Below are positions 32,584-49,174 of a stretch of DNA of 64,000 bases, piece after piece (position 1 is the stretch's first letter; each line of letters opens with the position of its first letter). Position numbers and translations under genes: made by a program. The notes below the pieces were generated by a model. That model was not told the origin of the DNA. It did no database searches and saw only the letters and a list, made by a program, of their open reading frames with translations. This stretch comes from Candidatus Poriferisocius sp. (lineage in GTDB: Bacteria; Actinomycetota; Acidimicrobiia; Acidimicrobiales; Bin134): assembly GCF_965208355.1 (NCBI RefSeq), contig NZ_CBDBOM010000003.1:1217394-1281393 (forward strand), read 5' to 3'.

Positions 32584-32621
32584 TCACCCGCCCCGACACG
32601 GCCACGATTGATTGCAGCTGA

Positions 32622-32773
32622 GGACCAACGAATTCGCGATCCAGCCCCGCCAATTTCCTCTCTGGCCTGGCCATCTCTCTGACACCCATCCACGACCTTG
32701 TCGCCCAAGTGGGGGTCAAGTTGCCCGCCTACTTCGGCGAGGCGCCCGACTCAGTGGCGGACCTTCACGTCTA
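32622..32773 (+). pseudogene. 3-prime remnant of a flotillin paralogue
   Basis: The frame reads ...ANFLSGLAISLTPIHDLVAQVGVKLPAYFGE...; flotillin residues encoded at 28779-28872 read ANFLSGLASSLPPIHDLAAQVGIKLPAYLGE. A ~93-nt DNA alignment is roughly 75-80% identical by eye. An in-frame stop lies at 32619-32621 and there is no upstream body. Confidence 0.75.
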
Positions 32774-32820
32774 GCCAAGACGCAAAGGCCCTCCGATAGG
32801 GGCGTGATACCGTCGCTTGC

Positions 32821-33291
32821 GTGGGGTCTCCTTTGAACAGACGCATGGCTGTCGTCATGTGCTGGTTAGCGGGGCTGTCCGCCCTGCTTGCTGCCATCGG
32901 AGCACTTCTGCCCTGGGCGACTGTTGAGGGTCCCATATCCGACTTCTTCGTTGAGGACTCCGACACGCCGGAGACCACAGTGCTGGTCGGCGCGGCGGTT
33001 GGCGCTGTGTCTGCGGCCGCGTTCGCGCAGTGGAGAAAGAGGATGATCGCCGCGCTGGGCCTGCTGGCTGGGCTGGTGATCACTTTGGTCGGCGCGATCA
33101 ATCTCGCCGAGGGCGGGGTTGACGCCCCGGACTTCATGGACACATCGCCGGAGCCGGGGCTCTATATGGTCGTGGTCGGCGGTGCCGTCTTGGCCGTTTC
33201 CTCGGGGTATCTCACCATCAAGAGGCAATCGAGTAAGCCGGTAGGCGAAGGCGGCGAACACTTGATCGGCGGCGAAGGCTCAGACGGCTAG
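32821..33291 (+). CDS. hypothetical membrane protein (about 4 TM segments)
   Basis: 156 aa with hydrophobic stretches WLAGLSALLAAIGALL, VLVGAAVGAVSAAAF, AALGLLAGLVITLVGAI and MVVVGGAVLAVSSGYL. The start is GTG 32821 or ATG 32845. Confidence 0.5.
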   Translation: MGSPLNRRMAVVMCWLAGLSALLAAIGALLPWATVEGPISDFFVEDSDTPETTVLVGAAVGAVSAAAFAQWRKRMIAALGLLAGLVITLVGAINLAEGGVDAPDFMDTSPEPGLYMVVVGGAVLAVSSGYLTIKRQSSKPVGEGGEHLIGGEGSDG

Positions 33292-33337
33292 CTCTGCGGC
33301 TGATTCGGACTCGCTGGGAGTCCGGAGTCGGGCTGTC

Positions 33338-34372: not shown

Positions 34373-34398
34373 CTACGCAGACGCTACTACCGCCTAAA

Positions 34399-34411
34399 GC
34401 GCCCACGGCAG
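34399..34411. repeat. 13-nt copy of the tRNA-Arg 3-prime end; left target-site duplication of the IS element
   Basis: The string gcgcccacggcag is identical to 35701-35713. Confidence 0.8.
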
Positions 34412-35700
34412 TGTGTTGGTTCAGGACATAGGAACCTTATGTCGCGAGACATAGGAACATCGCGGCGGCGGTCCAGGGTGGGGGATGTCGAGGGCCCGCT
34501 TGGTGATCACCGCTGTCGTTGTCGAGGGGCGCACGCACGCCGATGTCGCCGCCCAGTACGGCCTTTCGAGGTCATGGGTCACCCGTTTGGTCGCCCGGTA
34601 CCGCGCCGAGGGGCCTGCCGCGTTCGAGGCCCGGTCCCGGCGCCCCAACACCACACCGACAGCGATTTCGCCCGAGGTTGTGGAGCTGGTCGTGAACCTG
34701 CGCTCAGAGCTCGCCGCACAAGGGCTCGACGCCGGGCCGCACACCATCTGCTGGCACCTCGCCCAGCGCCACCAGATCACCGTGTCGCCGGCCACGGTCC
34801 GGCGCCGCCTCGTCGAGCTCGGCCTCGTCGAGGCCAACCCCAAAAAGCGGCCCCGATCGTCCTACACACGCTTCGAAGCCGATCTGCCCAACGAGTGCTG
34901 GCAGTCCGACTTCTGCCGCTGGGCGCTCGCCGACGGCTCGACTGTCGAGGTCATCACCTGGCTCGACGACTGCTCCCGCTACGCCCTGTCGGTCACCGCC
35001 CACCGGCGCATCACCGGCCCCATCGCGGCGGCCACATTCGACCACACGTGCGCTGACCACGGCATTCCCGCCTCCACGCTCACCGACAACGCCATGGTCT
35101 ACACCACCCGCCTCTCCGGCGGGAAAGGCGGCCGCAACGCCCTGGAGTCCCGCCTCGCGGCCCTCGGCGTCGCCCAGAAGAACTCCAAGCCCAACTGCCC
35201 CACCACCTGCGGCAAAGTCGAGCGATTCCAGCAAACCCTCAAGAAATGGCTCAAAGCCCGAACCCCGCCCCACAGCCTCGACCAGCTCCAAACCCAGATC
35301 GACGAATTCACCCGCACCTACAACCACCACCGCCCCCACCGATCCCTCGGACGCTCAACCCCAGCCGCCGCCTACACCCGACTCCCCAAAGCCACACCCC
35401 ACCAAAACAGCGACAGAACCCACTACCGCGTCCGACGCGACCGCATCGACAAATCCGGCACCGTCACCATCCGCCACAACGGCAAACTCCACCACATCGG
35501 CATCGGCCGAGCCCACAAACACACCCCCGTCATCCTCCTAGTCGACGGCACCCACACCAGAGTCATCGACCACACCACCGGCGAACTCCTACGACAACCC
35601 CACCTCGACCCCACACGCGACCACCAACCCCGCCACAAGAACTGACAAACACCCCGCCGCGCAGGTTCACAAGGTTCCTATGTCTCGCGACATCACACTG
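34409..35700 (+). mobile_element. IS481-family insertion sequence (~1.29 kb)
   Basis: The termini are CAGTGTG...CACACTG. The right-end 27-nt inverted repeat is cagtgtgatgtcgcgagacataggaac (reverse complement of 35674-35700). The left copy matches it but is interrupted by a 23-nt internal duplication at 34416-34438. A single DDE transposase ORF is present, and gcgcccacgg flanks both ends. Confidence 0.8.
34485..35645 (+). CDS. IS481-family transposase (HTH + DDE integrase core)
   Basis: 386 aa with an N-terminal HTH (HADVAAQYGLSRSWVTRLVARYR) and an rve-like core (WQSDFCRW...TDNAMVYT...KPNCPTTCGKVERF). Confidence 0.88.
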   Translation: MSRARLVITAVVVEGRTHADVAAQYGLSRSWVTRLVARYRAEGPAAFEARSRRPNTTPTAISPEVVELVVNLRSELAAQGLDAGPHTICWHLAQRHQITVSPATVRRRLVELGLVEANPKKRPRSSYTRFEADLPNECWQSDFCRWALADGSTVEVITWLDDCSRYALSVTAHRRITGPIAAATFDHTCADHGIPASTLTDNAMVYTTRLSGGKGGRNALESRLAALGVAQKNSKPNCPTTCGKVERFQQTLKKWLKARTPPHSLDQLQTQIDEFTRTYNHHRPHRSLGRSTPAAAYTRLPKATPHQNSDRTHYRVRRDRIDKSGTVTIRHNGKLHHIGIGRAHKHTPVILLVDGTHTRVIDHTTGELLRQPHLDPTRDHQPRHKN

Positions 35701-35774
35701 GCGCCCACGGCAGGATTCGAACCTGCGACCCCTTGCTCCGGAGGCAAGTGCTCTATCCCCTGAGCTACGTGGGC
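35699..35774 (-). tRNA. tRNA-Arg (anticodon CCG)
   Basis: The reverse complement is GCCCACGTAGCTCAGGGGATAGAGCACTTGCCTCCGGAGCAAGGGGTCGCAGGTTCGAATCCTGCCGTGGGCGCCA. It folds as a standard cloverleaf. The terminal CA of the CCA is contributed by the abutting IS end. Confidence 0.9.
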
Positions 35775-35824
35775 AGTAACTGGGTGAGTATAGCTAGCGG
35801 GTGGCCTCTACCATTGTTGAGTTC

Positions 35825-37447
35825 ATGGCCGACATCCGCACCTCCCTCTCTGATGCGCTACGCGCCGCGCTCGTGGCCACCGGCATCGACCTACCTGGCG
35901 ACTTTCAGGTCGGGTTGGAGCGACCGGCGCGGCGTGAGCACGGCGATTGGTCGTCCAACGCCGCGCTGGCCATCGCCAAGGGCGTCGGGCGCAATCCCCG
36001 GGAGCTGGCGGGGGAGCTAGCCGCTTGGCTGGAGGAGAACCGGCCTGAGCACGTGGCCGAGGTGAGCGTGGCTGGCCCCGGATTCGTCAATTTCAAGCTG
36101 GCGCCGAGTTGGCTGCACAGCGTCGTGCTCGATGCGGTGGCGCTCGGCACCGAGAGCTACGGGCGTAAGAACCTGGGCCAGGGTCGCGCCGTGATCGTGG
36201 AGTTTGTCAGCGCCAACCCCACCGGACCGGTTCACGCCGGCCACGGCCGGGGAGCGGCCTATGGCGACGCGGTGGCCCGGCTGCTGGAGTGGTGCGGTTA
36301 CGCGGTGCAACGGGAGTTCTACATCAACGATCGGGGCACGCAGATGGATCTGTACGGTGCCTCGCTAGCTGCCGTCCGGGCCGACGAACCTGTGCCCGAG
36401 GACGGCTACAACGGCCAGTACATCGCCGAATGGGCTTCGGAGATGCCTGCCGATGCCGATACCCGCCTGTGGGGGAGGGAGCGGGCGCTGGCCGATCAGC
36501 GGGAGGTTTTGGGTGAGATGGCGGTGGCGTTCGACACGTGGTCGAGCGAGCAGGCGCTGGTGGACTCGGGGGTCATCGACACCGCGCTGGCCGCCCTTGA
36601 CGCCGCCGGGGCTTCATACGAGGCCGAGGGGGCTCTGTGGCTGCGCTCCAGCGACCACGGCGACGACAAAGACCGGGTGTTGATCAAGTCCGATGGCGAG
36701 TACACCTATCTGCTGCCCGACATCGCCTATCACCGCGACAAACTTGATCGGGTCGGCTCTGATGGCCTGCTCATCAACGTGTGGGGGGCCGACCACCACG
36801 GGTATGTGGCCCGCATGAAGGCGGCCATGGCCGCGCTGGGCTGCGATCCCGCCAGTTTGGAGGTGGTGGTGACCCAGCTGGTGCGCCTGGAGTGCGACGG
36901 GGAGGAAGTGCGGCTGTCCAAGCGCACCGGCGACATCATCGAGCTGCGCGAGGTGATCGATGAGGTGGGGGCCGACGCCGCCCGGTTCACCTATCTCCTC
37001 CAGTCGATGGACACCGCGCCGACCTTCGATCTGGCCAAGGCGGCCGCCCAGGTGATGGAGAATCCGGTGTTCTACGTGCAGATGGCCCACGCCCGGGTGT
37101 GCTCTATCGCGGCCCGGGCCCAAGCCGACGGGGTGGAGCGGCTGAGCGTCGACCAGGTGGATCTGGGCGTGCTGGTCCACGAACGGGAGCTGGAGATGAT
37201 GCGCCAGCTCTCCACGCTGGGCGAAGTGATCGCCGCCGCGGCCGAAGAGCGGGCCCCGCATCGGGTCACCGCGTGGCTGCGGGACTTCGCCGCTGCGGTT
37301 CACAGCTTCTACCACGACTGCTACGTGGTGGGCACCGGCATCGCCCCCGAGCTGACCCAAGCTCGCCTCGTGCTGATTGACGCCGCCCGGGTGGGACTGG
37401 CCGTCGGCCTCGGCACCCTGGGCGTTAGCGCACCGGAGTCGATGTAG
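35825..37447 (+). CDS. argS: arginine--tRNA ligase
   Basis: From ATG 35825 (MADIRTSLSDALRAAL), with the HIGH-type region SANPTGPVHAGHGRG and a class I DALR anticodon-binding C-terminus. An in-frame GTG at 35801 is an alternative start. Confidence 0.93.
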   Translation: MADIRTSLSDALRAALVATGIDLPGDFQVGLERPARREHGDWSSNAALAIAKGVGRNPRELAGELAAWLEENRPEHVAEVSVAGPGFVNFKLAPSWLHSVVLDAVALGTESYGRKNLGQGRAVIVEFVSANPTGPVHAGHGRGAAYGDAVARLLEWCGYAVQREFYINDRGTQMDLYGASLAAVRADEPVPEDGYNGQYIAEWASEMPADADTRLWGRERALADQREVLGEMAVAFDTWSSEQALVDSGVIDTALAALDAAGASYEAEGALWLRSSDHGDDKDRVLIKSDGEYTYLLPDIAYHRDKLDRVGSDGLLINVWGADHHGYVARMKAAMAALGCDPASLEVVVTQLVRLECDGEEVRLSKRTGDIIELREVIDEVGADAARFTYLLQSMDTAPTFDLAKAAAQVMENPVFYVQMAHARVCSIAARAQADGVERLSVDQVDLGVLVHERELEMMRQLSTLGEVIAAAAEERAPHRVTAWLRDFAAAVHSFYHDCYVVGTGIAPELTQARLVLIDAARVGLAVGLGTLGVSAPESM

Positions 37448-37456
37448 GGAGTAGTT

Positions 37457-38725
37457 GTGTCAGCCTTGCCCCCGTACCTTCTGCCCGACAACGCCTCGGT
37501 GGGCGACGACGGGCGTTTGTCTATCGCCGGGTGCGATGCGCTCGAGTTGGCCGGGGAATTCGGCACGCCGCTGTTCGTCTACGACGAAGACCACATGCGG
37601 GAGCGGTGCCGCCAAGCCCGGGCGGCTTTCGGCGGATCGGTGGCGTATGCCTCCAAGGCGTTCCTGTGCTTGGCCATGGCTCGCCTGGTTCACGAGGAGG
37701 GGCTCGATCTGGACGTGGCCACCGGGGGAGAGCTGCGTGTGGCCCAGGCCGCGGGCTTGCCCGGTGATCGGCTGGTGATGCACGGCAACAACAAGTCGGC
37801 CGCCGAGCTGGCTGCTGCGGTCGAGGCCGGGGTGGGTCGCATTGTGGTGGACTCGTTTGACGAGCTCGACCGGCTCGACGAACTCCATGCCTCCACCGGG
37901 GCCCGCCCCCAGGTGCTGTTGCGGATCACTCCGGGGGTGGAGGCTCACACCCACGAGTACGTGACCACCGGGGTGGACGACACCAAGTTCGGATTCACCG
38001 CGTCCACCGGATTAGCCGACGCCGCCATTCGCCGAGCCCGGGAGGCCGACTCGGTGGAGCTTTTGGGATTGCACGCCCACATTGGCAGCCAGGTTTTCGA
38101 GCTGCGCTCCTTCCAACGGGCGGTGGAAGTGATTGCTGGCTTCGCCCATCCCTACGGGCTGCCGGAGCTGTCGCTGGGCGGCGGTTTGGGCGTGGCCTAC
38201 GTGGAAGGGGAGTCGGCCCCCACCATTGCCGAGTGGGCGGCGGCCATTGGCGAGGCCTGTGCGTCGGCCGGCTTCACGGCTCCAGTGAGCGTGGAGCCGG
38301 GCCGATCCTTGGTGGCCGCGGCGGCAATCACCCTCTATGAGGTGGGAACCATCAAAGAGCTACCCGGCATTCGCACCTACGTTTCGGTTGACGGAGGGAT
38401 GAGCGACAATCCCCGTCCGGTGCTCTACGACAGCGGCTACGAGACGTTTCTTCCCCGGGCCACCGGCCGCGACCGCGACAAGACGGTGCGAGTGGTGGGC
38501 AAGCACTGCGAGTCGGGCGACCTGTTGGTGCGTGACGGCCGAGTGCCCGGTGACATCGCGGTGGGCGACATCCTGGCCACCCCGGTGACCGGTGCCTATG
38601 GCCACTCCATGGGCTCCAACTACAACAAGGTTCTCCGCCCCGCCGTGGTGTTCGCCCGCAACGGCGATGCCCGCCTAGTCGTCCGCCGCGAGACATACGA
38701 AGACCTCCTCCGCAACGACGTCTAG
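37457..38725 (+). CDS. lysA: diaminopimelate decarboxylase
   Basis: 422 aa, GTG start. The PLP-Lys region AYASKAF, HIGSQ and CESGD motifs are present. Confidence 0.93.
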   Translation: MSALPPYLLPDNASVGDDGRLSIAGCDALELAGEFGTPLFVYDEDHMRERCRQARAAFGGSVAYASKAFLCLAMARLVHEEGLDLDVATGGELRVAQAAGLPGDRLVMHGNNKSAAELAAAVEAGVGRIVVDSFDELDRLDELHASTGARPQVLLRITPGVEAHTHEYVTTGVDDTKFGFTASTGLADAAIRRAREADSVELLGLHAHIGSQVFELRSFQRAVEVIAGFAHPYGLPELSLGGGLGVAYVEGESAPTIAEWAAAIGEACASAGFTAPVSVEPGRSLVAAAAITLYEVGTIKELPGIRTYVSVDGGMSDNPRPVLYDSGYETFLPRATGRDRDKTVRVVGKHCESGDLLVRDGRVPGDIAVGDILATPVTGAYGHSMGSNYNKVLRPAVVFARNGDARLVVRRETYEDLLRNDV

Positions 38726-41700
38726 CGCTCTTCTCCGGCGGATACATCGGCGATCTGGATGATGGAGGGTTGGCCGTTTTGGATGAGGTAGCCGCGTCCG
38801 GGGAGTGATGGGAGTGCGGGGCGAGTGGGGAGTTGGATGGTGAACAGGTCGCCGTCAAGAGGAGTGGGTTGGAGGAGGACGCCGGTGCGGGAAAAGCGGA
38901 TCTCGGCTGTCCAGTGGCCGTAGGCGGTGCGGAGGCGGTCGGCTCGGCCGGCGGCCACGATGTGCAGGCCGGGGCCGCTTTCGGTGGCCAGTGCCTTCAA
39001 GTCGCCGTCAGGGTCGTCCACCGTCTCGGCGCCGTCGATCAGCACGAGGGTCGGGGGATCGGCTGTTGCTGCCGCGGAGAGGAGTTCATCGACGTTACTG
39101 GCCGCTACATGGATGTCGGGGCAGTCGGCTAGCGGTGTCCCCGGTTGGGCCAATGCGGCAATCCGCCCTCCCGCGCGGGCTGCGGCTGCGGCCAGCAACA
39201 CCAGTGCCGAAGACCGTCCTGACCGGGGTGGCCCCAGGATGAGAGCGTGCTCGCCGGCGTAGAGGGTGAGGCCGACGGGGGCCAGGGTGTCGTCGCTCAA
39301 CCCCAGGGGCAGATACCAAGGGGAACCGCTCAAGCGGGCCTTGTCCAGCCGGGCGGAGTCGACTGATGCGGGCAAGCTCTCCACCGGCGGTGGGCCACCG
39401 GATTGGGGGCAAGTCGCAGCGATAACGGCAATTGCAGCAACCAGTCCGCCGACGGGAATCGCCACTTGGATCTCAAGGCCCGACGGGACGGCGAACCCCC
39501 GACCCGGAGGCAGGGTGGCCGGGTCGTCCACGGACACACCCCACTGGCGATACAGGGCAGGGTCGCCCAGGCGGAAGACGAAAGTCTGAGGGGTGGCGGC
39601 CTGGATGGCCCGGCTCGCCTTGGACAGTTGGTCGACGGCTGCGGCCAAGAACACTCCGACAGCCGGGCCTTCGGCCCACACCCGCTCCAACGTGGCCAGC
39701 AGGGCGTGGTCGGCCACGGTGTCCAAGCTCTTGGTAAGGCCGCCCCAGTTGTCGATCAAGCCCAGTACCAGCGGGAGCGACGGCTGCTCCCCGCCTGCCT
39801 CCGATCTGCTTCGGCCCAGCCGCCGGTCGAGGTCGTCTTCCAGCCGGCGGATGAGCCGCCGGATGCGGTCGCGTTCGTCGGGGCCCACCACCGCCCCGCA
39901 GTGGGGTAGGGCTTCCAAAGGGGCCAGTTGCCCTGTACCGGAATCTATGGCGTAGAGGTGGCACTCGCTGGGCTGGTAGCGAGTAGCCAGGGAAACGGAC
40001 AGCGATTCCAGCGCGGTGGTGGTGCCGCTGCCGGGATTGCCCGCGAAGAGGACATTGCCCTGGTCAGGATCCCAAGTGGCAGGGTATTGACACTGCCGAT
40101 TGGGGTCGTCGGCCAAGGCGAAAGCCACGCCGGTGCTGACAGCCGGCATGTCCAGTGCCAACTCGTTGAGCGAGACCACCGATGGCAGGGGATCGGGCCA
40201 GGGCCGACGAGGCGGGACGCCTTTCCAGCTTTCCCAGGCCAAGTTCGCTGCTGCGGCCAGCCGGGCCAGATCGCTGGGGGCTTCATCATCAGAGACGGGC
40301 GCGGGCGGGAGCGAGGGAATGCCGTCGGGGGCCGGGATGACCCGTGGGCCCCGCTGGGCGGCGGTGACCCCGGTCACCAGGGCGCATTGGAACTCCACCA
40401 ACTCGCCGGGTCCGAAGCGGGCGAAGGCGCGACCGGGTTGGTGTCGGCCGATGGCGGCGGCTTCGGGGCTGTCGAGCACGTCGACCGAGTCGGCGGCATC
40501 TAGCACTCGAAGGGCGATCCGCAGCGCAGTGTTGGTGCGGATGTTGGCGCTGACCGCCCCGGCGGGGCGCTGGGTGGCCAGCACGAGGTGCATGCCCAGG
40601 CTGCGTCCCCGCTGGGCCACGTTTACCAGCGAGTCCATGAATCCGGGCAGCTCCGCGGCCAGGGCGGCAAACTCGTCGATGATCACCACCAGCCGGGGCA
40701 GTGGCGGCCAGGGCTGACCTGTCTCCGTCTTGGCCCGGGACCGATAGTGGGCCAAGTCGGTGGCTCCCCGATCCCGGAGCACTTGTTCTCGGTGGCGGAG
40801 TTCGGCCTCCAGACACCGCAGAGCCCGCTCGGCCAAGCGGTCGTCAAGATCAGTCACCAGCCCGACTACGTGAGGCAAAGAGGCGCATTGGTCGAAGGCG
40901 CTGCCGCCCTTGTAGTCCACCAGGACGAAGTTCACCTGTTCTGGCGAGTAGGTGGCGGCCAAAGAGGCCACCATCGTTCGCAAGAGCTCGCTTTTGCCCG
41001 ACCCGGTGGTTCCGCCGATAAGGGCGTGGGGCCCGTCGGCGGCCAGGTCGGCCAGCACGGGACCGTGTCCATCGGCGCCGATGGGGGCGGCCAGGCTGTC
41101 GGCGAGGCAATTGGCCTGCCAGCGATCGGCAACCGCCTCAGCCAGGGCTGTCGATGCTGGCTCCTCTTCGCGGCCAACAATTTCGAGCATTTCCAGGAGC
41201 GATGTGTTGTCGGGGATGGCGGAGTCGGCGCCGAACTGCTCGGGATCTTCGAAGCGGGCCAGCTTCTGAGCCGTATCGCGGGCCAGCCTCAAGCTCATTC
41301 CGGAGGCCAGCACCGAGGGGTGAACATGGGCAGCCTGAGTCACATCGACCACACCGGAGGAATCGCGGGCCACGATGACGACCGTGGCAGTAGCGGGGAG
41401 TTGGTCCACGCTGGGAGCCAGAACGATGGCTGAGACCGGCCCGGCGGATTTCTGAAACAGGGGACGCATCGGAGCGCCTCGTCCGGTGGCCAGGTTCTCC
41501 CCGTCAGCGATCACCAGCAGTTGCGGCCAATGGGCGTGGCCTTGATGGTTCCAGGCTTCGGCAAGCTCGGATGCCATCTCTGCGGCGGCCGAGCGGCTGT
41601 TGGCGATCAGCCGGGCGCTGCCGATGGCGGGGTGGGCGGTATGGGGGAGCCAGGCGGTCCAAGACCAAACGGGGAAGGTCACCTCGTCGGCGGCCACTAG

Positions 41701-42912
41701 GACCGCGAGGTCGGCGGGACCATGCCCGGCGGCTGCCTGGAGGAGCAGCCCCCGGGCCATGGCGGTGGTGGCTGACCGAGGTCCCACCAAGCCGAGCAAA
41801 CGGCCGGGTCCCAGGTCCGCGGCGATGGGTACGTCGGGCAGCGGACCGAGCTCATTGAGCGCAGCAGCAGCACCATCGGCGATGTGCGCTCCATCGGCTG
41901 CCAACTCGGGATCGAAAGTCCGGGGACCATGAGCGATAACCAGCGACATGAAGTCTTCGTCGGCCGGCCTGCGCTCCCATAGCCGCACGCTGGGCAGGCA
42001 GACCCTCCTGACCGCTTCGGCGAGATGGGAATGCAACTCGCGAAGACGGGTGATCTCCGCCGAATGAGCCGCTTGGGCCGCAGCTTGGAATTCGACCAAC
42101 GAGGCTTGAGCTCTTCGCTGGGAGCGTCCGTGCTCAGAGCGGTCCCGGCGACGGCCATCAACCCAACTCGCTCCCATCATCACCGGACTGAGCAGGGCGA
42201 ACAGTGCCATATAGGGGCTGTAGAGCGCAGCCATCAGCAAACCGACCAACAGTGGGCTGGCTAGGGCCGCCCAGCCGAACACCGCCCTCCGGGGCGATCT
42301 GGTCGGCTCGCTTGATGGCGTTGCCAGGGGGTCGGGCTGTTGGGGGAGTGGCGTTCGGGGAGGACGGTTGAAGGCAATGCGGCCTGAGGCGGTGCGCCCC
42401 AAGACGACAGCTAGTCGATTCGGCCGATCGTCGGGTGACTCGGACACTTGGACCAGGGCATTGCCCAGCCGGAACGGCTTGGACACCTCTTCTGTTGTCG
42501 GCGGGTCTTCTCCCCGCCGAACAAAAACCTGTTGGTCTTGTCGCTCGACCCGGACATGTTGGGGACGCAGTCCGATACCCGACAGGGTCACGTCGGCTTC
42601 GGGGGACCGCCCAACAGACACGCCCTCCGGGGCCATGGGGAATCTCTCACCCGAGCACAACCCGCCGATAACCTCCAGCGTCCACCCCGGCTGGTCGGGC
42701 TCTCGACCGGGGAGCACTCCCACTCGGGCGCCGTCCACTATCTCTGTTTCGTCAAGGCGGCTGTCGGCGGAAAACCATTGGTCGCCGACCCACAGGCCAG
42801 AACATGGCTCATGCAACCCCAAGGACTCGGCCAATTCACCGACAGTGGCTATCGGCGGACCAGAGACCAATACCTCTTGGTTGCCCTCTGGTCCCTCGAA
42901 GAGCAGGCGCAC
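38722..42912 (-). CDS. EssC/EccC-like type VII secretion FtsK/SpoIIIE ATPase with N-terminal FHA domain
   Basis: 1396 aa. The N-terminal soluble region contains an FHA-like segment (VSVGRSPEADVTLSGIGLRPQHVRVERQ). Two TM segments follow (FGWAALASPLLVGLLMAAL.., LFALLSPVMMGASWV). Three P-loop domains follow (GGTTGSGKSELL, GNPGSGTTTAL, GPPRSGRSSAL). Confidence 0.85.
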   Translation of the reverse strand: MRLLFEGPEGNQEVLVSGPPIATVGELAESLGLHEPCSGLWVGDQWFSADSRLDETEIVDGARVGVLPGREPDQPGWTLEVIGGLCSGERFPMAPEGVSVGRSPEADVTLSGIGLRPQHVRVERQDQQVFVRRGEDPPTTEEVSKPFRLGNALVQVSESPDDRPNRLAVVLGRTASGRIAFNRPPRTPLPQQPDPLATPSSEPTRSPRRAVFGWAALASPLLVGLLMAALYSPYMALFALLSPVMMGASWVDGRRRDRSEHGRSQRRAQASLVEFQAAAQAAHSAEITRLRELHSHLAEAVRRVCLPSVRLWERRPADEDFMSLVIAHGPRTFDPELAADGAHIADGAAAALNELGPLPDVPIAADLGPGRLLGLVGPRSATTAMARGLLLQAAAGHGPADLAVLVAADEVTFPVWSWTAWLPHTAHPAIGSARLIANSRSAAAEMASELAEAWNHQGHAHWPQLLVIADGENLATGRGAPMRPLFQKSAGPVSAIVLAPSVDQLPATATVVIVARDSSGVVDVTQAAHVHPSVLASGMSLRLARDTAQKLARFEDPEQFGADSAIPDNTSLLEMLEIVGREEEPASTALAEAVADRWQANCLADSLAAPIGADGHGPVLADLAADGPHALIGGTTGSGKSELLRTMVASLAATYSPEQVNFVLVDYKGGSAFDQCASLPHVVGLVTDLDDRLAERALRCLEAELRHREQVLRDRGATDLAHYRSRAKTETGQPWPPLPRLVVIIDEFAALAAELPGFMDSLVNVAQRGRSLGMHLVLATQRPAGAVSANIRTNTALRIALRVLDAADSVDVLDSPEAAAIGRHQPGRAFARFGPGELVEFQCALVTGVTAAQRGPRVIPAPDGIPSLPPAPVSDDEAPSDLARLAAAANLAWESWKGVPPRRPWPDPLPSVVSLNELALDMPAVSTGVAFALADDPNRQCQYPATWDPDQGNVLFAGNPGSGTTTALESLSVSLATRYQPSECHLYAIDSGTGQLAPLEALPHCGAVVGPDERDRIRRLIRRLEDDLDRRLGRSRSEAGGEQPSLPLVLGLIDNWGGLTKSLDTVADHALLATLERVWAEGPAVGVFLAAAVDQLSKASRAIQAATPQTFVFRLGDPALYRQWGVSVDDPATLPPGRGFAVPSGLEIQVAIPVGGLVAAIAVIAATCPQSGGPPPVESLPASVDSARLDKARLSGSPWYLPLGLSDDTLAPVGLTLYAGEHALILGPPRSGRSSALVLLAAAAARAGGRIAALAQPGTPLADCPDIHVAASNVDELLSAAATADPPTLVLIDGAETVDDPDGDLKALATESGPGLHIVAAGRADRLRTAYGHWTAEIRFSRTGVLLQPTPLDGDLFTIQLPTRPALPSLPGRGYLIQNGQPSIIQIADVSAGEER

Positions 42913-42969
42913 GGGTGGAGCGATGCGGGGTCAGCCAGGGCAGCCCCGGATTGTCGACGGGCCGGTCCG

Positions 42970-43239
42970 TCAGATCGAGTCGAGGGCCGTGATGGTGTTT
43001 TGGCGTTCGAGGCTCACCGCGGTGGACAGTTCGACGAGCGCCTCCTGCAACTGTCCGAGGGAGGGAGACCACTGCTCATGCCACGCGCCCCGGAACCGCT
43101 CGGAGCGACTACCCGTCCAGGTGGTGCCCTCCAGGGTGGCGGTCAAGCGGGTGCGGAGATCTTCCACTTGGCCGGCGAAAGCGGTGAATTGCTGCTGGAG
43201 GTGGTCCATTTCCTCTGTGTTCATGGTCAAAACAGACAC
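42970..43239 (-). CDS. WXG100-family (ESAT-6-like) protein
   Basis: 89 aa with a predicted helix-turn-helix and a central W-T-G (LEGTTWTGSRSERFRGAWHEQW). This parallels the EsxA-type W-x-G...F....W..W pattern. It lies immediately upstream of the EssC-like gene. Confidence 0.8.
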   Translation of the reverse strand: MSVLTMNTEEMDHLQQQFTAFAGQVEDLRTRLTATLEGTTWTGSRSERFRGAWHEQWSPSLGQLQEALVELSTAVSLERQNTITALDSI

Positions 43240-43332
43240 GCTGGGGCCTTTCTGTCGGCTGATCCCTCGGACGGATCAGTTCCGGGCCCTTGTTAGTCGG
43301 TATTTATTGAAATATCAAGAGATATATGGAGA

Positions 43333-44676
43333 CTACTGAAAGCCACCGTTGGCGGTGTGCTCGTCGAAGGCGGCCTTGACCCAAGAGAGGTCATCTGCGG
43401 CGACCCGCCTGCGGATCAGGTCGGCGTCGATTCCGTAGACCCGGGCGGCATTCAGCCCGAGGATCTTCTCTTTGATGTGGTCGGTGAGTTCCGGATAGCC
43501 GTGACGTTGCCGTAACTCCTCGGGTATCTGAAAGGCCCGGAAGGCGTCGATGAGGGGTTGGGGCGATCCGTACCAAATCGAGTCGCTGCCCCACAGCACA
43601 TTGTCCTCGCCAACCGCGTTGAGCAGTTTGCCGATCACGTGGGCCGCCTCCCGAGGCCGACGCGACAGCACATACCAGGTGCTCCCCAACTCGGCGTAGA
43701 CGTTGGCGCCGGGCCCTATTCCGGCTTCGTGCAGGCTCTTGATCAAGCGGTCGGTGCCGGCGGGTGTCTGCTCGTCGTAGGGGCCTTCTTCAGAGTCTCC
43801 GATCGGTGTCTCATAACCCGAGTGGTAGACGAGGAAATCAATGTCGGGGAAGCTGGCTGCGGCCGGGCCGATGTCGGCCGGCGACCCGGCCCGAGCCAGG
43901 GCGCTCAGCCCCTTGTGGGCACAAACAATGCCCACCCCCAGTTCCCGGCTCCTTTCCAGGAACGGCAGTCCGCACTCTTCGTCGTCGAGGCGCCATCCCG
44001 GCTGATCCCCCCACCCGGCAATGGTGTAGACCTTCCATCCCGCTGGCTTGCTATGCGCCATCAGCGATTCCATCTGATCCAACTCGCCCGGTGCATTGGG
44101 ATGGACGATGGAGTGGTTGATCAGCCGACCGGTGCCCGCCAATCGATCGATCAGCTCGCGGGTGGCGGCGATTTCGGGATTGGTGAGGATGCTGTGGCGG
44201 TCGTCGCCGGGCGTGCAGGTGAGCACCGCGACAGCGGTCTCGCTCTCCAGAAAGACGTGACGCAAGTAGTTGCCCAGATCGAGATGGATGGCCGGATCGA
44301 GCCCTTGCCAGCGATCGGGGACCACGTCGCGAATGAACCCCATGATTCCCTCGACGCCGGGGGCCTCGGCCCGATGGCGGGCGACGTAGTGCGTCTGGAC
44401 ATCGATCACCAGCTCGCTGCCCCCGAACACCGCTTCGGCCGCTTCCGGATCGGTCTCGGCTTGCGGGTCGATCTTGTAGTAGCCCCCGCCCCAGGCCTCG
44501 TCGATGGCCCTCAGCGCCGTGGCCGTGCCCCTTCGGCTGGCTGAGAAGTCGTGCTGCTCCCAGAGTGTGTCTCCAGCAGCCTCGGCCCGCTCCACTGCTC
44601 GTCCCACGGCCCAGAGATCGCGCCTGGACCAAGCCAGGGGCCAGTACTCGTCGTTGCTTCGACGCTGCAAGAGCAC
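43333..44676 (-). CDS. amidohydrolase-2 family (TIM-barrel metal-dependent hydrolase) protein
   Basis: 447 aa, GTG start. The pattern VIDVQTHY...HSIVHPN...VCAHKG...LVYHSGY...WGSDS is consistent with PF04909-type hydrolases. Confidence 0.65.
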   Translation of the reverse strand: MLLQRRSNDEYWPLAWSRRDLWAVGRAVERAEAAGDTLWEQHDFSASRRGTATALRAIDEAWGGGYYKIDPQAETDPEAAEAVFGGSELVIDVQTHYVARHRAEAPGVEGIMGFIRDVVPDRWQGLDPAIHLDLGNYLRHVFLESETAVAVLTCTPGDDRHSILTNPEIAATRELIDRLAGTGRLINHSIVHPNAPGELDQMESLMAHSKPAGWKVYTIAGWGDQPGWRLDDEECGLPFLERSRELGVGIVCAHKGLSALARAGSPADIGPAAASFPDIDFLVYHSGYETPIGDSEEGPYDEQTPAGTDRLIKSLHEAGIGPGANVYAELGSTWYVLSRRPREAAHVIGKLLNAVGEDNVLWGSDSIWYGSPQPLIDAFRAFQIPEELRQRHGYPELTDHIKEKILGLNAARVYGIDADLIRRRVAADDLSWVKAAFDEHTANGGFQ

Positions 44677-44708
44677 CGGGATCGGCAGGAATCGGACAGG
44701 CGGGATAG

Positions 44709-45071
44709 CTATTGAAAATAGCTCACTTGCAGCTCGAGTTCGCGGGCTTCCTCCCGCAAGGCGGCCTCAGCGGCCATCTCAACCCGAGCGGCGTCGGCAT
44801 ACAGCTCATCGGCTCGGGCCAGGAGTCGGCGGGCCACCTGCTCGATCTCGTAGCGCAACCGGAGCAGGTGGCTGTGCTGCTGACGAAGACGGAGGCGGCT
44901 GGCGTCGGCAACGGCCGAGAGCCAAACGTCCGGCCCGTGTCGGGCCACTGGGCCATCGAGCACATGGTCGAGTCCCCGCCAGACCCTGTCGACGTCGGCC
45001 CGGACCTGCTCGCAGGCGATCGCCTGGCGTCGCAGATCATCGGCCAGGGAAAACAACTCGTAGGAAGACAT
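44709..45071 (-). CDS. small all-helical hypothetical protein
   Basis: 120 aa, Arg/Ala/Glu-rich with heptad-like helices. A W-R-G occurs at residues 31-33. It is the first gene of the minus-strand block that ends with the EssC-like gene. Confidence 0.45.
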   Translation of the reverse strand: MSSYELFSLADDLRRQAIACEQVRADVDRVWRGLDHVLDGPVARHGPDVWLSAVADASRLRLRQQHSHLLRLRYEIEQVARRLLARADELYADAARVEMAAEAALREEARELELQVSYFQ

Positions 45072-45213
45072 GTGTCATCTAAAATACATTGTTTAGATTG
45101 AAAAGCAATGAAGACTCTTCGGTCGGGGAAATCTGGTTAGATTGACCAGATCCACCCGGTACGGTGGAGAAGGTGAGCGACCCTTCCAAGACGCGAATCG
45201 GCGTGGTGAAGCG

Positions 45214-46527
45214 ATGAACGATTCTCCTCGCAAACGAATCGGCGTAGGCGTTCTGGGCTGTGGAAACGTCGGCTCGGCGTTTGTCGGACTGCTTGAGGAG
45301 CAGCGGTCGGCGATCGCGGAACGCACCGGAATGGAATTGGACGTGGTGCGGGTGGCAGTGCGAAGTACGTCGCGCGACCGCGACGTGGTCTTGGCCGATG
45401 GGGTGCTGACCACCGACGCCGCCTCCGTGGTGAACGACCCCGAAGTGGACGTGGTGGTGGAGCTGATCGGAGGCATCGAGCCCGCCCGTGAGCTGCTGGC
45501 CGCCGCGCTGAAGCTGGGCAAGCCGGTGGTCACCGGAAACAAGGAGCTGCTGGCCAACTATGGCGCCGAGCTATATGCCGCCGCTGACGCCGCCGGAGTG
45601 GATCTGCTGTTCGAGGCCGCCGTCGGCGGTGGGATTCCCCTGATTCGCCCCCTCCGGGAGTCTTTGGCCGCAGAGCCATTGCGGCGGGTGATGGGCATTG
45701 TCAACGGCACCACCAACTACATCTTGAGCCAGATGACCGAGCACGGCACCAGCTATCACGACGCCCTGGCCGACGCGCAGTCACTGGGATTCGCCGAGCG
45801 CGACCCCACTGCCGACGTGGAGGGGTTCGACGCCGCGGCCAAAGCATCCATCATCGCCACAGTGGCCTTCGGGGCCCGGGTGCTGGCCGGCAGCGTGTAC
45901 CGGGAGGGCATCTCCGGCATCAGCTCCGCCGATATCGCCCACGCCCACCGGCTGGGTTATGTGGTCAAGCTGCTGGCCATTGCCGAGCAGGTTGGCCAGG
46001 TCGAGGGCAAGCCCGAGCTAGCCGTGCGGGTTCATCCGGCGATGGTGCCGGTCGGCCATCCGCTGGCCTCGGTGCGCGATTCGTTCAACGCGGTCTTCGT
46101 GGAGGGCGACGCAGTGGGAGAGCTGATGCTCTACGGACGAGGTGCTGGCGGCCGTCCAACGGCCAGCGCCGTGCTGGGCGACCTCATCGACGCGGCCGGC
46201 AACCGGTGCCGAGGCACTTGGACCCCGATCGGTGATTTGGGCGAGGCGGTTGTCTGCTCAATCGATGACCTGGAGTCGGAGTACTACATCATCATGGAGG
46301 TGCTCGACCGGCCGGGCGTGCTGGCCGCAGTGGCCGGGGTATTCGGACGCCACGGGGTGAGCATCCGCTCCATGGAGCAGGAGGGCTTGGGCGACCAGGC
46401 TCGACTGGTGTTCATCACCCACGAGGCCACCGAGCGAGATGTGCAGGCCACATTGGGCGACCTTCGAGAGCTGGACTCTGTGCGGGGAATGCCCGCGCTG
46501 TTGCGGGTGGTCAGCCAGGGCTCATGA
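45214..46527 (+). CDS. hom: homoserine dehydrogenase
   Basis: From ATG 45214 the product is MNDSPRKRIGVGVLGCGNVGSAF (Rossmann motif). The catalytic domain and a C-terminal ACT domain follow. There is an ATGA overlap with thrC. Confidence 0.92.
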   Translation: MNDSPRKRIGVGVLGCGNVGSAFVGLLEEQRSAIAERTGMELDVVRVAVRSTSRDRDVVLADGVLTTDAASVVNDPEVDVVVELIGGIEPARELLAAALKLGKPVVTGNKELLANYGAELYAAADAAGVDLLFEAAVGGGIPLIRPLRESLAAEPLRRVMGIVNGTTNYILSQMTEHGTSYHDALADAQSLGFAERDPTADVEGFDAAAKASIIATVAFGARVLAGSVYREGISGISSADIAHAHRLGYVVKLLAIAEQVGQVEGKPELAVRVHPAMVPVGHPLASVRDSFNAVFVEGDAVGELMLYGRGAGGRPTASAVLGDLIDAAGNRCRGTWTPIGDLGEAVVCSIDDLESEYYIIMEVLDRPGVLAAVAGVFGRHGVSIRSMEQEGLGDQARLVFITHEATERDVQATLGDLRELDSVRGMPALLRVVSQGS

Positions 46528-47924
46528 AGTACATCAGCACTCGGGGCCGTGCCCCGGTTCTGGATTTCGGCGATGTGCTGTTGGCTGGCCTGGCGGCTGA
46601 CGGAGGGCTGTATGTGCCCGACCGCTGGCCGGAGCTCTCTGTAGAGGCGCTGAGCGGCCATCCCGGCCGAGGCGACTACGCCGACTTGGCCGCCGAGGTG
46701 ATGTGGCCGTTTGTGGACGGCGCCTACACCCGAGACCGATTCGACGAGCTGGTGAGAGATGCCTACGCAGGGTTCGACCATCCCGATGTGGTGCCGATGG
46801 TGGAGTTGGGCGACGGACTGTGGCTCATGGAGCTGTTCCACGGCCCGACGCTGGCCTTCAAGGACATCGCCCTACAGCTAGTGGGGCGCCTGTTTGACGA
46901 AGAGCTGTCTCGGCGGAGCGAACGGGTGACCATCGTGGGGGCCACATCGGGTGATACGGGAGCGGCGGCCATCGAGGCAGTGCGCGACCGGGAGAACATC
47001 CAAATCGTGATCCTGCACCCCCATGGGCGGGTCTCAGAGATGCAGCGGCGGCAGATGACCACCGTCGACAGCGCCAACGTCCACAACGTGGCCATCGAGG
47101 GTACGTTCGACGACTGCCAAGACCTGGTTAAGGCCATGTTCGGCGACGCCGAATTCCGGGCCAAACAGCGGCTTTCGGCCGTCAACTCCATCAACTGGGC
47201 CCGGGTAATGGCTCAAACCGTGTATTACGTGGCCGCCGCCACCCGATATGGCCTGGAGCGGGTGTCGTTCTCGGTGCCCACCGGCAACTTCGGAAATGTG
47301 CTGGCCGGCCATGTCGCCCGCCAGATGGGCCTGCCGGTGGACCGCTTCATCGTGGCCAGCAACCGCAACGACATCTTGACGCAGTTCTTCACCACCGGCT
47401 CGATGGCCATTTCCGAAGTGCACCCCACGATGTCGCCCAGCATGGACATCCAGGTGTCGTCCAACCTTGAGCGGCTGCTGTTCGAGCTGCTGGATCGGGA
47501 CGGGATTCGCACTGCCAAACTGCTAGAGGACTTCCGGGCCACCGGTGAGATGAGGATCGATCCCCGCATCTCCGTGGAGTTGAATCAGAACTGGTCGGGA
47601 GTACGGGTGGACGAGGATGAGACCACCGCCGCCATCGCCGAGCTTTTTCGGGACACCGGCATGATCGTCGATCCCCACACTGCGGTGGGTCTGGCCGCCG
47701 CCCGTCACACCCGACGCGACGCCGACGGGGCCATGGTGGTGATGGCCACCGCCCACCCGGCCAAATTCGGTGATGCAGTGGAGGCCGCCATCGGTTCGCC
47801 CGCACCGCTGCCTCCCGCGCTGGCTGAGTTGGCCGACCGCACCGAGCGATGCGAACGCCTTCCCAACGACTTGAGGGCGGTGAAGGCCCATGTCGCCCAG
47901 TGTTCGGCACGAGCTTTCGGATAG
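46524..47924 (+). CDS. thrC: threonine synthase
   Basis: 466 aa with the PLP-Lys region GPTLAFKDIALQ and TSGDTGAAA. Confidence 0.93.
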   Translation: MKYISTRGRAPVLDFGDVLLAGLAADGGLYVPDRWPELSVEALSGHPGRGDYADLAAEVMWPFVDGAYTRDRFDELVRDAYAGFDHPDVVPMVELGDGLWLMELFHGPTLAFKDIALQLVGRLFDEELSRRSERVTIVGATSGDTGAAAIEAVRDRENIQIVILHPHGRVSEMQRRQMTTVDSANVHNVAIEGTFDDCQDLVKAMFGDAEFRAKQRLSAVNSINWARVMAQTVYYVAAATRYGLERVSFSVPTGNFGNVLAGHVARQMGLPVDRFIVASNRNDILTQFFTTGSMAISEVHPTMSPSMDIQVSSNLERLLFELLDRDGIRTAKLLEDFRATGEMRIDPRISVELNQNWSGVRVDEDETTAAIAELFRDTGMIVDPHTAVGLAAARHTRRDADGAMVVMATAHPAKFGDAVEAAIGSPAPLPPALAELADRTERCERLPNDLRAVKAHVAQCSARAFG

Positions 47925-48025
47925 CGGCTGACCACAATTGATCTGGCAGAATCGAGCATCGTGAAGTTCGTGGTGTGTGTAGCCAGCCTGCGGTGCTGTC
48001 GAACAGAGCAAGAGAGTCGTTCATC

Positions 48026-49174
48026 GTGAAATACGTGGTGTGCATACCCGACGGGTGCTCGGATCTGCCGGTACCTGAGCTTGACGGGGCCACCCCATTG
48101 GAAGCGGCTCGCACTCCGGTGCTCGACGCCCTGGCTGCCCGGGGACAGGTGGGATTGGCCCAGGTCATCCCTCCGGGAATGCCGCCGGGTAGCGACGTGG
48201 GCAACATGTCCATCTTCGGGTACGACCCCACCCGCTACCACACGGGGCGCTCGCCCATTGAAGCTGCCGCACTAGGCCTCACCCTCACCCCCGACCAGGT
48301 GGCCTACCGCTGCAATCTGGTAACGGTGACCGAAGACGGCATCATGGCCGACTTCTCCGGAGGCCACCCCGACTCTGCTCGGGCCGCCGAGGTCATAGCC
48401 GCACTGGACGCGGAATTGGGGGGCGAGGTCAGCTTTCATGCCGGGGTTCAGTACCGCCACACGATGATTGCTCCGGCCGAGTGGGCCGACGCGATCTGCA
48501 CTCCGCCCCACGAGCTCTCCGATCTGCCGGTGGTGGGACCCCAGGGCCCAGCCGGGCCCAAGCTCGCCTCTTTGGAGGAGGCTTCCCGGTCGGTGGTGCC
48601 CAGATTCGGATTGAAGGCCAACCGGATTTGGCTGTGGGGTCAGGGATTCCAGCCGGAGATGCCCTCCTTCCGGGAGATGCACGGCGTGGAAGCTGGGATG
48701 GTCAGCGCAGTCGACTTGGTGCGAGGGATCGGGGCGCTCACCGGCATGACGGTGGCCAATGTGCCGGGAGCCACCGCCTGGTACGACACCAATTACGAGG
48801 GGAAGCGAGATGCAGCTCTGGCCGGTTTGGCCGATGGCGCAGACCTGTATGCAATCCACGTGGAGGCCAGTGACGAGGCCGGGCATGAGGGCAATGTGGC
48901 CGAGAAGGTCAGATGCCTGGAGAACTGGGACCGTCGCATCCTGGCCGGTTTGATTGACGGCTTGGATCAATTGGGCCCTTGGCGGCTGCTGCTGCTGCCC
49001 GACCACGCCACACCGCTCACCACCAGGAGCCACATCGATGATCCAGTTCCCTATCTGATTGTCGACTCAGAGGTCGACGGCCCCGGCGGCGTCTACACCG
49101 AACAGGGGGCGGCCTCAGCTGAGGTGGTACCCGGCCATCACCTGATGGGGAGGCTCCTGGCCCGGGCCAGCTAG
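48026..49174 (+). CDS. archaeal-type cofactor-independent phosphoglycerate mutase (ApgM) family protein; candidate non-orthologous homoserine kinase
   Basis: From GTG 48026 the product is VKYVVCIPDGCSDLP..., with the metal-site motif HVEASDEAGHEGN of the alkaline-phosphatase superfamily. It occupies the thrB slot after hom-thrC. Confidence 0.7.
   Translation: MKYVVCIPDGCSDLPVPELDGATPLEAARTPVLDALAARGQVGLAQVIPPGMPPGSDVGNMSIFGYDPTRYHTGRSPIEAAALGLTLTPDQVAYRCNLVTVTEDGIMADFSGGHPDSARAAEVIAALDAELGGEVSFHAGVQYRHTMIAPAEWADAICTPPHELSDLPVVGPQGPAGPKLASLEEASRSVVPRFGLKANRIWLWGQGFQPEMPSFREMHGVEAGMVSAVDLVRGIGALTGMTVANVPGATAWYDTNYEGKRDAALAGLADGADLYAIHVEASDEAGHEGNVAEKVRCLENWDRRILAGLIDGLDQLGPWRLLLLPDHATPLTTRSHIDDPVPYLIVDSEVDGPGGVYTEQGAASAEVVPGHHLMGRLLARAS

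Follow-up and report, generated by a model that had tools for sequence, protein, structure and literature searches.

What can a type VII secretion system (T7SS)-family ATPase do when its gene lies in the middle of a housekeeping gene run, beside a WXG100 gene and with no other known T7SS component in the surrounding 64 kb? The question is raised by a 64,000-nucleotide stretch of DNA (here, the window) from Candidatus Poriferisocius sp., a sponge-associated member of the Acidimicrobiales (contig NZ_CBDBOM010000003.1, positions 1,217,394 to 1,281,393). Its closest records are metagenome-assembled genomes (MAGs; GCA_0098xxxxx) and Candidatus Poriferisocius, in the family Candidatus Hopanoidivoransaceae. 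Between lysA and hom, four minus-strand genes occupy positions 38722 to 45071. Judging from the related genomes sampled, the conserved unit is three of these genes, which encode the ATPase, the WXG100 protein, and a helical protein of 120 amino acids (aa) that we call p120. We consider it fairly probable that these genes form a reduced type VII-like export module, passed on by vertical descent within an Acidimicrobiales clade.

Gene content of the lysA-hom block

The block and its immediate flanks contain the following features.

35801 to 37447, plus strand: argS (Pfam)
37457 to 38725, plus strand: lysA (Pfam)
38722 to 38725: CTAG, shared by the stop codons of the convergent lysA and ATPase genes
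38722 to 42912, minus strand: T7SS-family ATPase, 1396 aa
42970 to 43239, minus strand: WXG100 protein, 89 aa
43333 to 44676, minus strand: amidohydrolase-2 family TIM-barrel metal hydrolase, 447 aa (Pfam Amidohydro_2, 66 bits)
44709 to 45071, minus strand: p120, 120 aa
45142 to 46527, plus strand: hom (Pfam)
46524 to 47924, plus strand: thrC (Pfam)

All four open reading frames (ORFs) of the block lie exactly where a preliminary description of this DNA had placed them, with the same strands and sizes, and Pfam confirms the flanking genes. The overlap of the stop codons was also confirmed, and the gene ends overlap in the same way in three of the sampled related loci (L001, L002, and L007; L-numbers denote such loci). 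The GC content of the block is host-like, as first described (0.665 versus 0.654 for the window), and the reported AT-rich stretch at 43288 to 43325 is present (GC content of 0.289). The surroundings form a conserved actinobacterial housekeeping run with rho, rpmE, prfA, prmC, glyA, and the atp operon.

The pairing of a type VII-family ATPase with a bona fide WXG100 gene was borne out by the domain analyses below. The earlier observation that the block encodes no other known T7SS component also held, and it extends to the window: among the 55 genes called, each either run against Pfam or named via annotated orthologous loci, none belongs to the EccB/D/E, MycP, EssA/B, or EsaA families. EccB, EccD, EccE, and mycosin are also absent from the orthologous loci in relatives. 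The sole membrane segment encoded in the block is a transmembrane (TM) hairpin in the ATPase, the other three proteins having maximum hydropathy values (KD19) of ≤1.05.

Domain architecture of the ATPase

The ATPase is laid out as a ubiquitin-like (Ubl) domain, an FHA domain, a linker, two TM helices, a stalk/DUF region, and three ATPase domains (D1, D2, and D3). These assignments, some of them predicted from an AlphaFold2 (AF2) model, map to the minus strand as follows.

42715 to 42912: predicted ubiquitin-like beta-grasp domain (residues 1 to 66; AF2, profiles), YukD/EsaB-like in its presumed role and fused in cis
42439 to 42684: predicted single degenerate FHA domain (residues 77 to 158; AF2 and Foldseek)
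42130 to 42291: TM helical hairpin (residues 208 to 261; hydropathy; AF2 helices 208 to 230 and 233 to 261) with almost no external loop
40990 to 41013: D1 Walker A motif GTTGSGKS (residue 634), canonical and invariant across the family
40018 to 40041: D2 P-loop GNPGSGTT (residue 958), Walker lysine replaced by Thr, conserved in the family
39211 to 39234: D3 P-loop GPPRSGRS (residue 1227), Walker lysine replaced by Arg

The motor part has the layout of EccC/EssC (TsxC) proteins: a pair of TM helices at the N-terminal end, then a stalk/DUF pseudo-ATPase domain and three tandem FtsK/SpoIIIE P-loop domains. The two TM helices and three P-loop domains of the preliminary description were thus confirmed by hydropathy, AF2, Pfam (FtsK_SpoIIIE, E = 3.8e-57, in two stretches), and motif inspection. 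The best matches in the PDB were EccC of T. curvata (4nh0, 300 bits), EccC5 (207 bits), and Bacillus subtilis YukB (184 bits). In alignments with EccC3 and EccC5, residues 212 to 848 cover the TM, stalk/DUF, and D1 regions (212 to 555 to the N-terminal region of EccC3 and 235 to 843 to EccC5), and the stalk/DUF region matches EccC3/EccC5 residues 45 to 401 and 72 to 709. This EccC-type alignment sets the ATPase apart from FtsK DNA pumps; a DNA-pumping role (as for FtsK or TraB) was rejected on account of the stalk/DUF region, the triple ATPase, and the linkage to a WXG100 gene.

Scores against the curated NCBIfam models were 453 bits for EssC (TIGR03928; cutoff, 778), 369 for EccCa (cutoff, 509; residues 227 to 848), and 287 for EccCb (cutoff, 347; residues 898 to 1244) (TIGR03924/5). 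By these scores, the protein is a divergent branch outside both curated equivalogs, EssC and EccC. D1 is likely the catalytic site, and D3 likely serves as the substrate-docking domain, by analogy with what is known of EccC. The strongest hydrophobic segment of the whole protein lies between D2 and D3 (residues 1145 to 1168; window 39409 to 39480; KD19, 2.3). We considered it as a third TM helix and rejected it: all relatives conserve a GLxAAV motif there, and the segment is therefore read as a buried helix.

In the AF2 model of residues 1 to 262, the first 66 residues fold as strand, strand, helix, strand, strand, strand (pLDDT, 81 to 92), and they are followed by a beta-sandwich at 77 to 158, a disordered linker, and the TM hairpin at 208 to 261. 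The N-terminus of one homologue matches Pfam SAMP2 at 32.6 bits, above the gathering threshold, and that of another matches YukD (E = 0.006). A family profile run against the PDB found SAMP2 (E = 0.004), ubiquitin designs, the Ubl domain of EccD1 (4kv2; E = 0.18), and Snm4. With homologues matching SAMP2 and YukD and the profile finding ubiquitin-like entries, we rejected a second FHA as the identity of the first domain.

The sequence match of the second domain to an FHA family is below threshold (Yop-YscD_cpl, 24.5 bits versus a cutoff of 33.2), and orthologues with 40 to 45% identity match PF00498 directly. When the AF2 model was searched with Foldseek, the top 50 matches were all FHA or FHA-like (MDC1, GarA, OdhI, and YscD; E of ∼1e-5; TMt of 0.6 to 0.75), consistent with the 11-strand beta-sandwich of FHA domains. 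Of the residues that bind phosphothreonine (Arg, Ser, and Asn), only the first is kept: G101-R102 is present, the Ser of SxxH is an Arg (RxxH), and the loop bearing the NG motif is deleted. The FHA fold proposed in the preliminary description is therefore supported, but its claim of a likeness to firmicute EssC and not to EccC is not: the N-terminus is modeled as a Ubl and one degenerate FHA domain, not as a tandem FHA, and the motor scores nearer to EccC.

The WXG100 protein and p120

The 89-aa protein is close to the family's typical length of ∼100 aa, carries a central W-x-G (W41-T-G43), and matches PF06013 at 34.2 bits, above the gathering score of 27.3, which upholds the first call. Its score against NCBIfam TIGR03930 is 39.1, below the cutoff of 44.85. 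It is 87 to 93% identical across lineages in which the ATPase is 50 to 73%, hom is 75 to 95%, and p120 is 55 to 85% identical, and its substitutions fall mostly at third codon positions (e.g., 15/6/48).

p120 has no Pfam or NCBIfam match. Compared with eight orthologues, it shows 169/153/441 substitutions at codon positions 1/2/3 of the minus-strand frame, and this concentration at the third position indicates a real gene. AF2, here working from a shallower alignment, predicts a helical hairpin (pLDDT, 92.8; helices 3 to 39 and 53 to 119) with an invariant W50 in the connecting loop, which reads W50-L-S, and the C-terminus ends in a conserved hydrophobic-x3-hydrophobic-x-Tyr-Phe tail. In a Foldseek search of the PDB, the top 27 matches were all EsxA/EsxB-type WXG100 proteins, with weak E values (0.06 to 0.3), as p120 is a simple hairpin. 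p120 lacks both the sequence match and the W-x-G of the WXG100 family, and because only its fold resembles the family, we call it WXG100-like and not a member. The preliminary description was right that the protein is helical, but it went no further; in the model, p120 is a WXG100-like hairpin, and it is conserved as part of the core.

On this structural likeness, p120 is likely the EsxB-like counterpart to the true WXG100 protein. Its C-terminal tail recalls the LxxxMxF signal by which EsxB binds D3 of EccC. We claim no p120 homologues outside the clade. Our first hidden Markov model (HMM) contained the L010 and L040 sequences, which made their matches circular; with both left out, the L010 orthologue was recovered (E = 1.5e-7), L040, L031, and L038 were not significant, and nothing significant was found beyond the clade.

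Position of the module in related genomes

All sampled genomes of related Acidimicrobiales have the module beside hom, and lysA is usually on its other side. The order lysA-module-hom is found in six near-identical MAGs (L001 to L006), in Candidatus Poriferisocius (L007 and L015 to L019; ATPases 61 to 73% identical), and in a distant Acidimicrobiia MAG (L010/L011; 43% identical). In L008 and L012/13 (50 to 54% identical), the module is kept beside hom-thrC and the other flank is rearranged. Overall, ATPase orthologues of 50 to 90% identity were found in Acidimicrobiia MAGs.

The block had been described as an insertion of four genes, and neither part of that description survives the comparison. 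The preliminary description had itself named universal occurrence at the lysA-hom junction as a finding that would speak against an insertion, and this is what the sampled lineage shows. With the position shared by all sampled relatives, the distant MAG included, the module is old and vertically inherited and not a recent insertion. As for the unit, the amidohydrolase gene is present in the window, L001 to L007, L015, and L016 and missing from L008, L012, and L017 to L019, while p120, the WXG100 gene, and the ATPase gene lie next to hom in L001 to L008, L012, and L015 to L019 (and likewise in L010, where the middle gene differs). Purifying selection acts on each of the three core genes.

A neighbor-joining tree of the motor region places the window, its Poriferisocius relatives, L008, L012, and L010 in one clade (bootstrap, 81); its root is arbitrary, and it includes neither a firmicute EssC nor a classical EccC sequence. 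Mycobacterium sp. GA-2829 was used as an EccC outgroup, the 80 GTDB loci being taken at that point for a mix of EccC types, but the Ubl and FHA HMMs place its ATPase within the Ubl-FHA family, which is why the root is arbitrary.

The lysA-hom slot of a Microthrixaceae MAG (L040) holds a small helical protein, a WXG100 gene, an FHA-ATPase with intact FHA motifs, and a Ser/Thr kinase, whose gene (Pkinase, 82.9 bits; 13599 to 15386 of L040) lies between the FHA-ATPase and lysA. With this kinase and the intact motifs, L040 seems to present the slot in a less reduced form.

Distribution of the ATPase family and its link to kinases

When 40 other actinobacterial ATPases were compared with the Ubl and FHA HMMs, most gave N-terminal matches, including those of Streptomyces, Actinoplanes, Micrococcales, Mycobacterium sp. 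GA-2829, Solirubrobacteraceae, and Egibacteraceae (FHA only). With a profile built from the complete N-terminal module, 1,276 representatives of 50%-identity clusters were found at E ≤ 1e-30. Among the best 150 representatives, most align from residue 1; about half are roughly 1,400 aa long, and the rest are shorter, mostly fragments. Judged by these profile matches, the Ubl-FHA-TM-ATPase architecture is widespread in Actinomycetota.

Related ATPases are usually encoded beside a Ser/Thr kinase (L009, L014, L043, L045, and others). Among 39 scorable loci, a kinase gene was found in 13 of the 17 with intact GR/SxxH/NG motifs and in 1 of the 22 with degenerate motifs (P = 3.5e-6 by Fisher's test); the window has neither a kinase nearby nor intact FHA motifs. 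The same correlation between kinase and FHA motifs is seen across T7SS subtypes (Garrett et al. 2024, Table S1; PMC11217815).

As far as its predicted domains allow placement, the Ubl-FHA ATPase family lies outside the published T7SSa-j scheme; the current classification does not include an architecture of a Ubl with one FHA domain, yet this architecture is widespread in the phylum. The actinobacterial YukD-like domain has been described as always fused to a 12-TM protein (EccD) (Iyer et al. 2006). Our literature search found no description of a Ubl-FHA-EccC fusion, which is weak evidence of novelty with most subscription journals outside the search, and nothing on type VII secretion in Acidimicrobiia or sponges. 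The large proteins encoded next to related ATPases (687 aa in L010, 632 aa in L040, and 553 aa in L009) have no detectable similarity to each other or to the amidohydrolase, and no hidden conserved accessory component emerged from them.

Two further kinds of loci came up in the sampling. L028 (5677 to 15144; also L031 and L033) represents another T7SS-like type of Acidimicrobiia, with a WXG100 gene, a 123-aa protein, a related ATPase, divergent LysM and TcpC-like single-pass proteins, and an Abhydrolase_8 protein downstream. L022, on a contig labeled as a gammaproteobacterial MAG, carries an actinobacterial ATPase (40% identical) and a WXG100 gene and is probably a misbinned contig.

Promoter-like and leader elements

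Three candidate control elements were found on the minus strand, in or beside the block.

43290 to 43318: promoter-like TTGATA (43318 to 43313)-N17-TAACAA (43295 to 43290), upstream of the WXG100 and ATPase genes
43247 to 43279: 5' leader of the WXG100 gene, with a palindrome and a predicted ribosome-binding site
45081 to 45108: AT-rich promoter-like box TTGCTT-N16-TATTTT, ending 9 nucleotides before the ATG of p120

A strict sigma-70 consensus scan called no promoter in the block, and the promoter call is therefore based on cross-species footprinting. In the window, L001, L007, L015, and L018, both hexamers of TTGATA-N17-TA(A/T)CAA and their exact spacing are kept while the spacer sequence diverges, and the element occurs both where the amidohydrolase gene lies upstream of it and where p120 does. 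This footprint supports the internal promoter proposed upstream of the WXG100 gene in the preliminary description. The leader contains the palindrome CTGATC-N9-GATCAG (43279 to 43259), conserved in sequence and without covariation, which may be an operator or an RNA hairpin, and an invariant GAAAGG at 43252 to 43247 as the predicted ribosome-binding site. The box before p120 lies in the region shared divergently with hom and is partly conserved in L001, L007, L015, L017, and L018. Since it ends 9 nucleotides before the start codon, the p120 mRNA could be near-leaderless.

Comparison with known type VII systems

T7SSd (TsdA, TsdC, the kinase TsdD, TsdH, and TsdI) is the one other actinobacterial FHA-bearing type in the T7SSa-j scheme and the sole subtype without a ubiquitin-like protein (PMC11217815). 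The module resembles it in phylum, in its FHA-bearing EccC/EssC-type ATPase, in its single adjoining WXG100 gene, and in having no free ubiquitin-like protein, and the wider Ubl-FHA family is likewise kinase linked with intact phosphothreonine motifs. However, TsdC has two FHA domains, whereas the window ATPase has a predicted Ubl and one FHA; the TsdC N-terminus (printed in Fig. S2 of PMC11217815) did not match our Ubl profile, and its second FHA matched our FHA profile. A second WXG100-like gene, p120, is present here. Neither the locus nor the window encodes TsdH, TsdI, the TsdD kinase, or any other kinase, and of the GR/SxxH/NG signature of T7SSd the ATPase keeps the GR, with the phosphothreonine motifs otherwise lost.

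With T7SSb (Ess-Yuk) of Bacillota, the module shares a WXG100 gene beside the ATPase, an N-terminal FHA that does not bind phosphothreonine (here predicted from its residues), and a ubiquitin-like module in contact with the FHA and DUF domains (here proposed). It differs in that the Ubl is fused in cis and not a separate YukD, that there is one FHA and not two, that the motor is nearer to EccC than to YukB, and that the window encodes no EssB pseudokinase, EsaA, or EssA; none of the features that mark T7SSb (tandem FHA, separate EsaB/YukD, EssB, EsaA, and EssA) was found. In the cryo-electron microscopy structure from B. subtilis, YukD is clamped between the FHA and DUF domains of YukB, and the same paper's hexamer model, which is partly computed, has a central channel made up of YukB TM segments (PMC12637312). 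The first of these contacts gives a direct rationale for a cis-fused Ubl, and the channel model makes it plausible that an ATPase hexamer alone could form a channel.

The stalk, DUF, and ATPase domains find their closest sequence matches in T7SSa (ESX) (4nh0 and 7np7). The pair of small hairpin proteins here is reminiscent of EsxA/EsxB, and in both systems the Ubl is part of a fusion, with EccD in ESX and, by prediction, with the ATPase in this module. In contrast to ESX, no EccB, EccD, EccE, or mycosin is encoded with the ATPase in the block, the window, or the orthologous loci; EccC has neither FHA nor Ubl, and the EccCa and EccCb scores here are below their cutoffs. What sets the module apart is that its kinase has been lost, its phosphothreonine site has decayed, the locus encodes no other membrane component, a second WXG100-like partner is present, and its place among housekeeping genes is fixed.

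Pallen in 2002 and Sutcliffe in 2011 are said to have concluded that the ATPase and WXG100 proteins are the only universal parts of such systems and that some phyla carry just these. Those surveys reportedly mention no Ubl-FHA fusion, p120 partner, fixed lysA-hom location, or pattern of kinase loss.

Proposed mechanism and alternative explanations

From these observations, we infer the following scheme. The WXG100 protein and p120 would form a helical-bundle dimer, which would dock on the C-terminal ATPase domain via a C-terminal tail. The ATPase would hexamerize in the membrane, and D1, the sole canonical P-loop domain, would power export through a channel lined by 12 TM helices. The cis-fused Ubl would hold the FHA braced against the DUF domain, a part played in Bacillus by free YukD. 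In the ancestral actinobacterial form, a Ser/Thr kinase probably gated the system through the FHA; with the kinase and the phosphothreonine-binding residues lost here, the system is probably constitutive or controlled transcriptionally from its own conserved promoter.

Several points weigh against an export module of this kind. The likeness of p120 to WXG100 proteins is structural only (Foldseek E ≥ 0.06), and helical hairpins match easily. The Ubl assignment draws on a moderate-confidence AF2 model (overall pTM, 0.40) and weak profile matches, the ATPase is below every curated NCBIfam cutoff for EssC and EccC, and D2 and D3 lack the Walker lysine. The ATPase of L040 falls outside the clade of the neighbor-joining tree, so that the families need not share the lysA-hom slot by descent. 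Conservation of the WXG100 protein equals or exceeds that of the neighboring housekeeping enzymes, an unusual level for a secreted effector. The organism is known from MAGs only, and we know of no T7SS that works with the ATPase as its sole membrane protein; partners could be encoded elsewhere.

This last idea is the alternative that survives best, and we regard it as possible, if on balance unlikely: the three genes would be the cytoplasmic and motor part of a full T7SS with its other membrane components elsewhere in the genome. Every characterized T7SS subtype has extra membrane components (PMC11217815). Among the related loci, L043 and L045 carry a kinase and large signal-peptide or TM proteins beside the ATPase, and other Acidimicrobiia loci have LysM and TcpC-like single-pass proteins there. 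Yet core components cluster with the ATPase in the described subtypes, and at least 10 independent loci across the clade show only housekeeping neighbors, and the 64-kb window contains no such component. The decay of the phosphothreonine site also fits a real loss of the kinase, and a Ubl is already supplied in cis. The opposite extreme, which strikes us as rather doubtful, is that the ATPase is the whole machine, a hexamer with its own Ubl brace and FHA scaffold that would act as both motor and channel and export the WXG100/p120 dimer without any other membrane component.

Alternatively, the module may not export protein at all and may have a housekeeping role in the cell or at the membrane, e.g., in envelope or division control. 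The high identity of the WXG100 protein relative to the ATPase is unlike that of a fast-evolving effector and could point to an intracellular role; however, the core EsxA components needed for secretion are also strongly conserved (PMC11217815). The embedding of the module in a core region (argS-lysA ... hom-thrC-rho-prfA-atp), its long vertical inheritance, and the lack of an obvious cargo gene in most lineages would suit such a role, which has been suggested for Esx proteins in Streptomyces development. We nevertheless consider it improbable, as the TM hairpin, stalk/DUF region, and three FtsK-type domains are the architecture of a secretion motor and WXG100 proteins are the defining substrates of such motors.

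The amidohydrolase could in principle be cargo or an effector of the module, occupying a variable slot. Its gene sits between p120 and the WXG100 gene, the protein is 84 to 96% conserved within its subclade, and the slot holds lineage-specific proteins with helical N-termini in other lineages (an unrelated 687-aa protein in L010 and a 632-aa protein, encoded on the other strand, in L040). The family, however, has >4,000 homologues, also in Gammaproteobacteria and Myxococcota, and those named by taxon (Halioglobus and Myxococcota MAGs) are 54 to 56% identical over the full length. As the whole length, N-terminus included, is shared with these diderm bacteria, no T7SS targeting or other secretion domain has been added. 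The protein has no LXG, WXG, or YxxxD/E-type features, and the WXG100 promoter lies downstream of its gene. A role as cargo thus seems quite improbable, and from its distribution the amidohydrolase gene is best read as a passenger of one subclade that arrived later.

There is hardly any chance that the block is a recently acquired island with a firmicute-type EssC: lysA and hom are adjacent in the Mycobacterium-type gene order and the block is on the strand opposite to its neighbors, but synteny already contradicts the idea (the position is the same in all relatives down to 43% ATPase identity), the GC content matches the host's, the block is bordered by neither mobility genes nor repeats, and the motor is nearer to actinobacterial EccC and nested inside an actinobacterial family.

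Other features of the window

Three other features of the window were recorded. The gene after thrC (47975 to 49174), at the place of thrB in the Mycobacterium-type order, is of the Metalloenzyme/PhosphMutase type in orthologous loci; it is probably the alternative homoserine kinase known from other bacteria. Upstream of argS, a mobile-looking insert of ∼6 kb (29700 to 35774) lies between a Band_7 gene (27535 to 28959) and a tRNA-Arg(CCG) gene (35699 to 35774, minus strand). It contains an insertion sequence-type transposase (rve/HTH; 34485 to 35645), an HNH/DUF222 protein (31231 to 32583), and several ORFs without a family, and it is absent from L001 and L002, where Band_7 abuts argS. Finally, a tRNA-Gln(CTG) gene (10244 to 10318) is flanked by a GmrSD_C restriction-type gene (9157 to 10152) and a Fic/DOC gene (10346 to 11485), the latter followed by ∼2.7 kb without a confident ORF. 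This region (9157 to 14189) may be a small tRNA-linked defense or toxin islet.

Implications

The type VII transport of folded helical dimers is still debated, both as to which component is the channel and as to what the accessory proteins contribute. A system reduced in nature would allow a compact test of an ATPase-lined channel, of the Ubl as a brace between FHA and DUF domains, and of FHA decay after kinase loss. The fusion of Ubl and ATPase hints at a way for FHA-bearing ATPases of Actinomycetota to function when no free ubiquitin-like protein is present, although TsdC of T7SSd, which lacks such a protein, showed no fused Ubl. If the ATPase were indeed the whole machine, this would be the simplest natural type VII secretion system, long maintained in Acidimicrobiales from sponges and from elsewhere, with a kinase-gated actinobacterial ancestor from which it arose by loss. 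For sponge symbiosis, the module draws attention to two small proteins, conserved and probably secreted, in a dominant lineage of symbionts.

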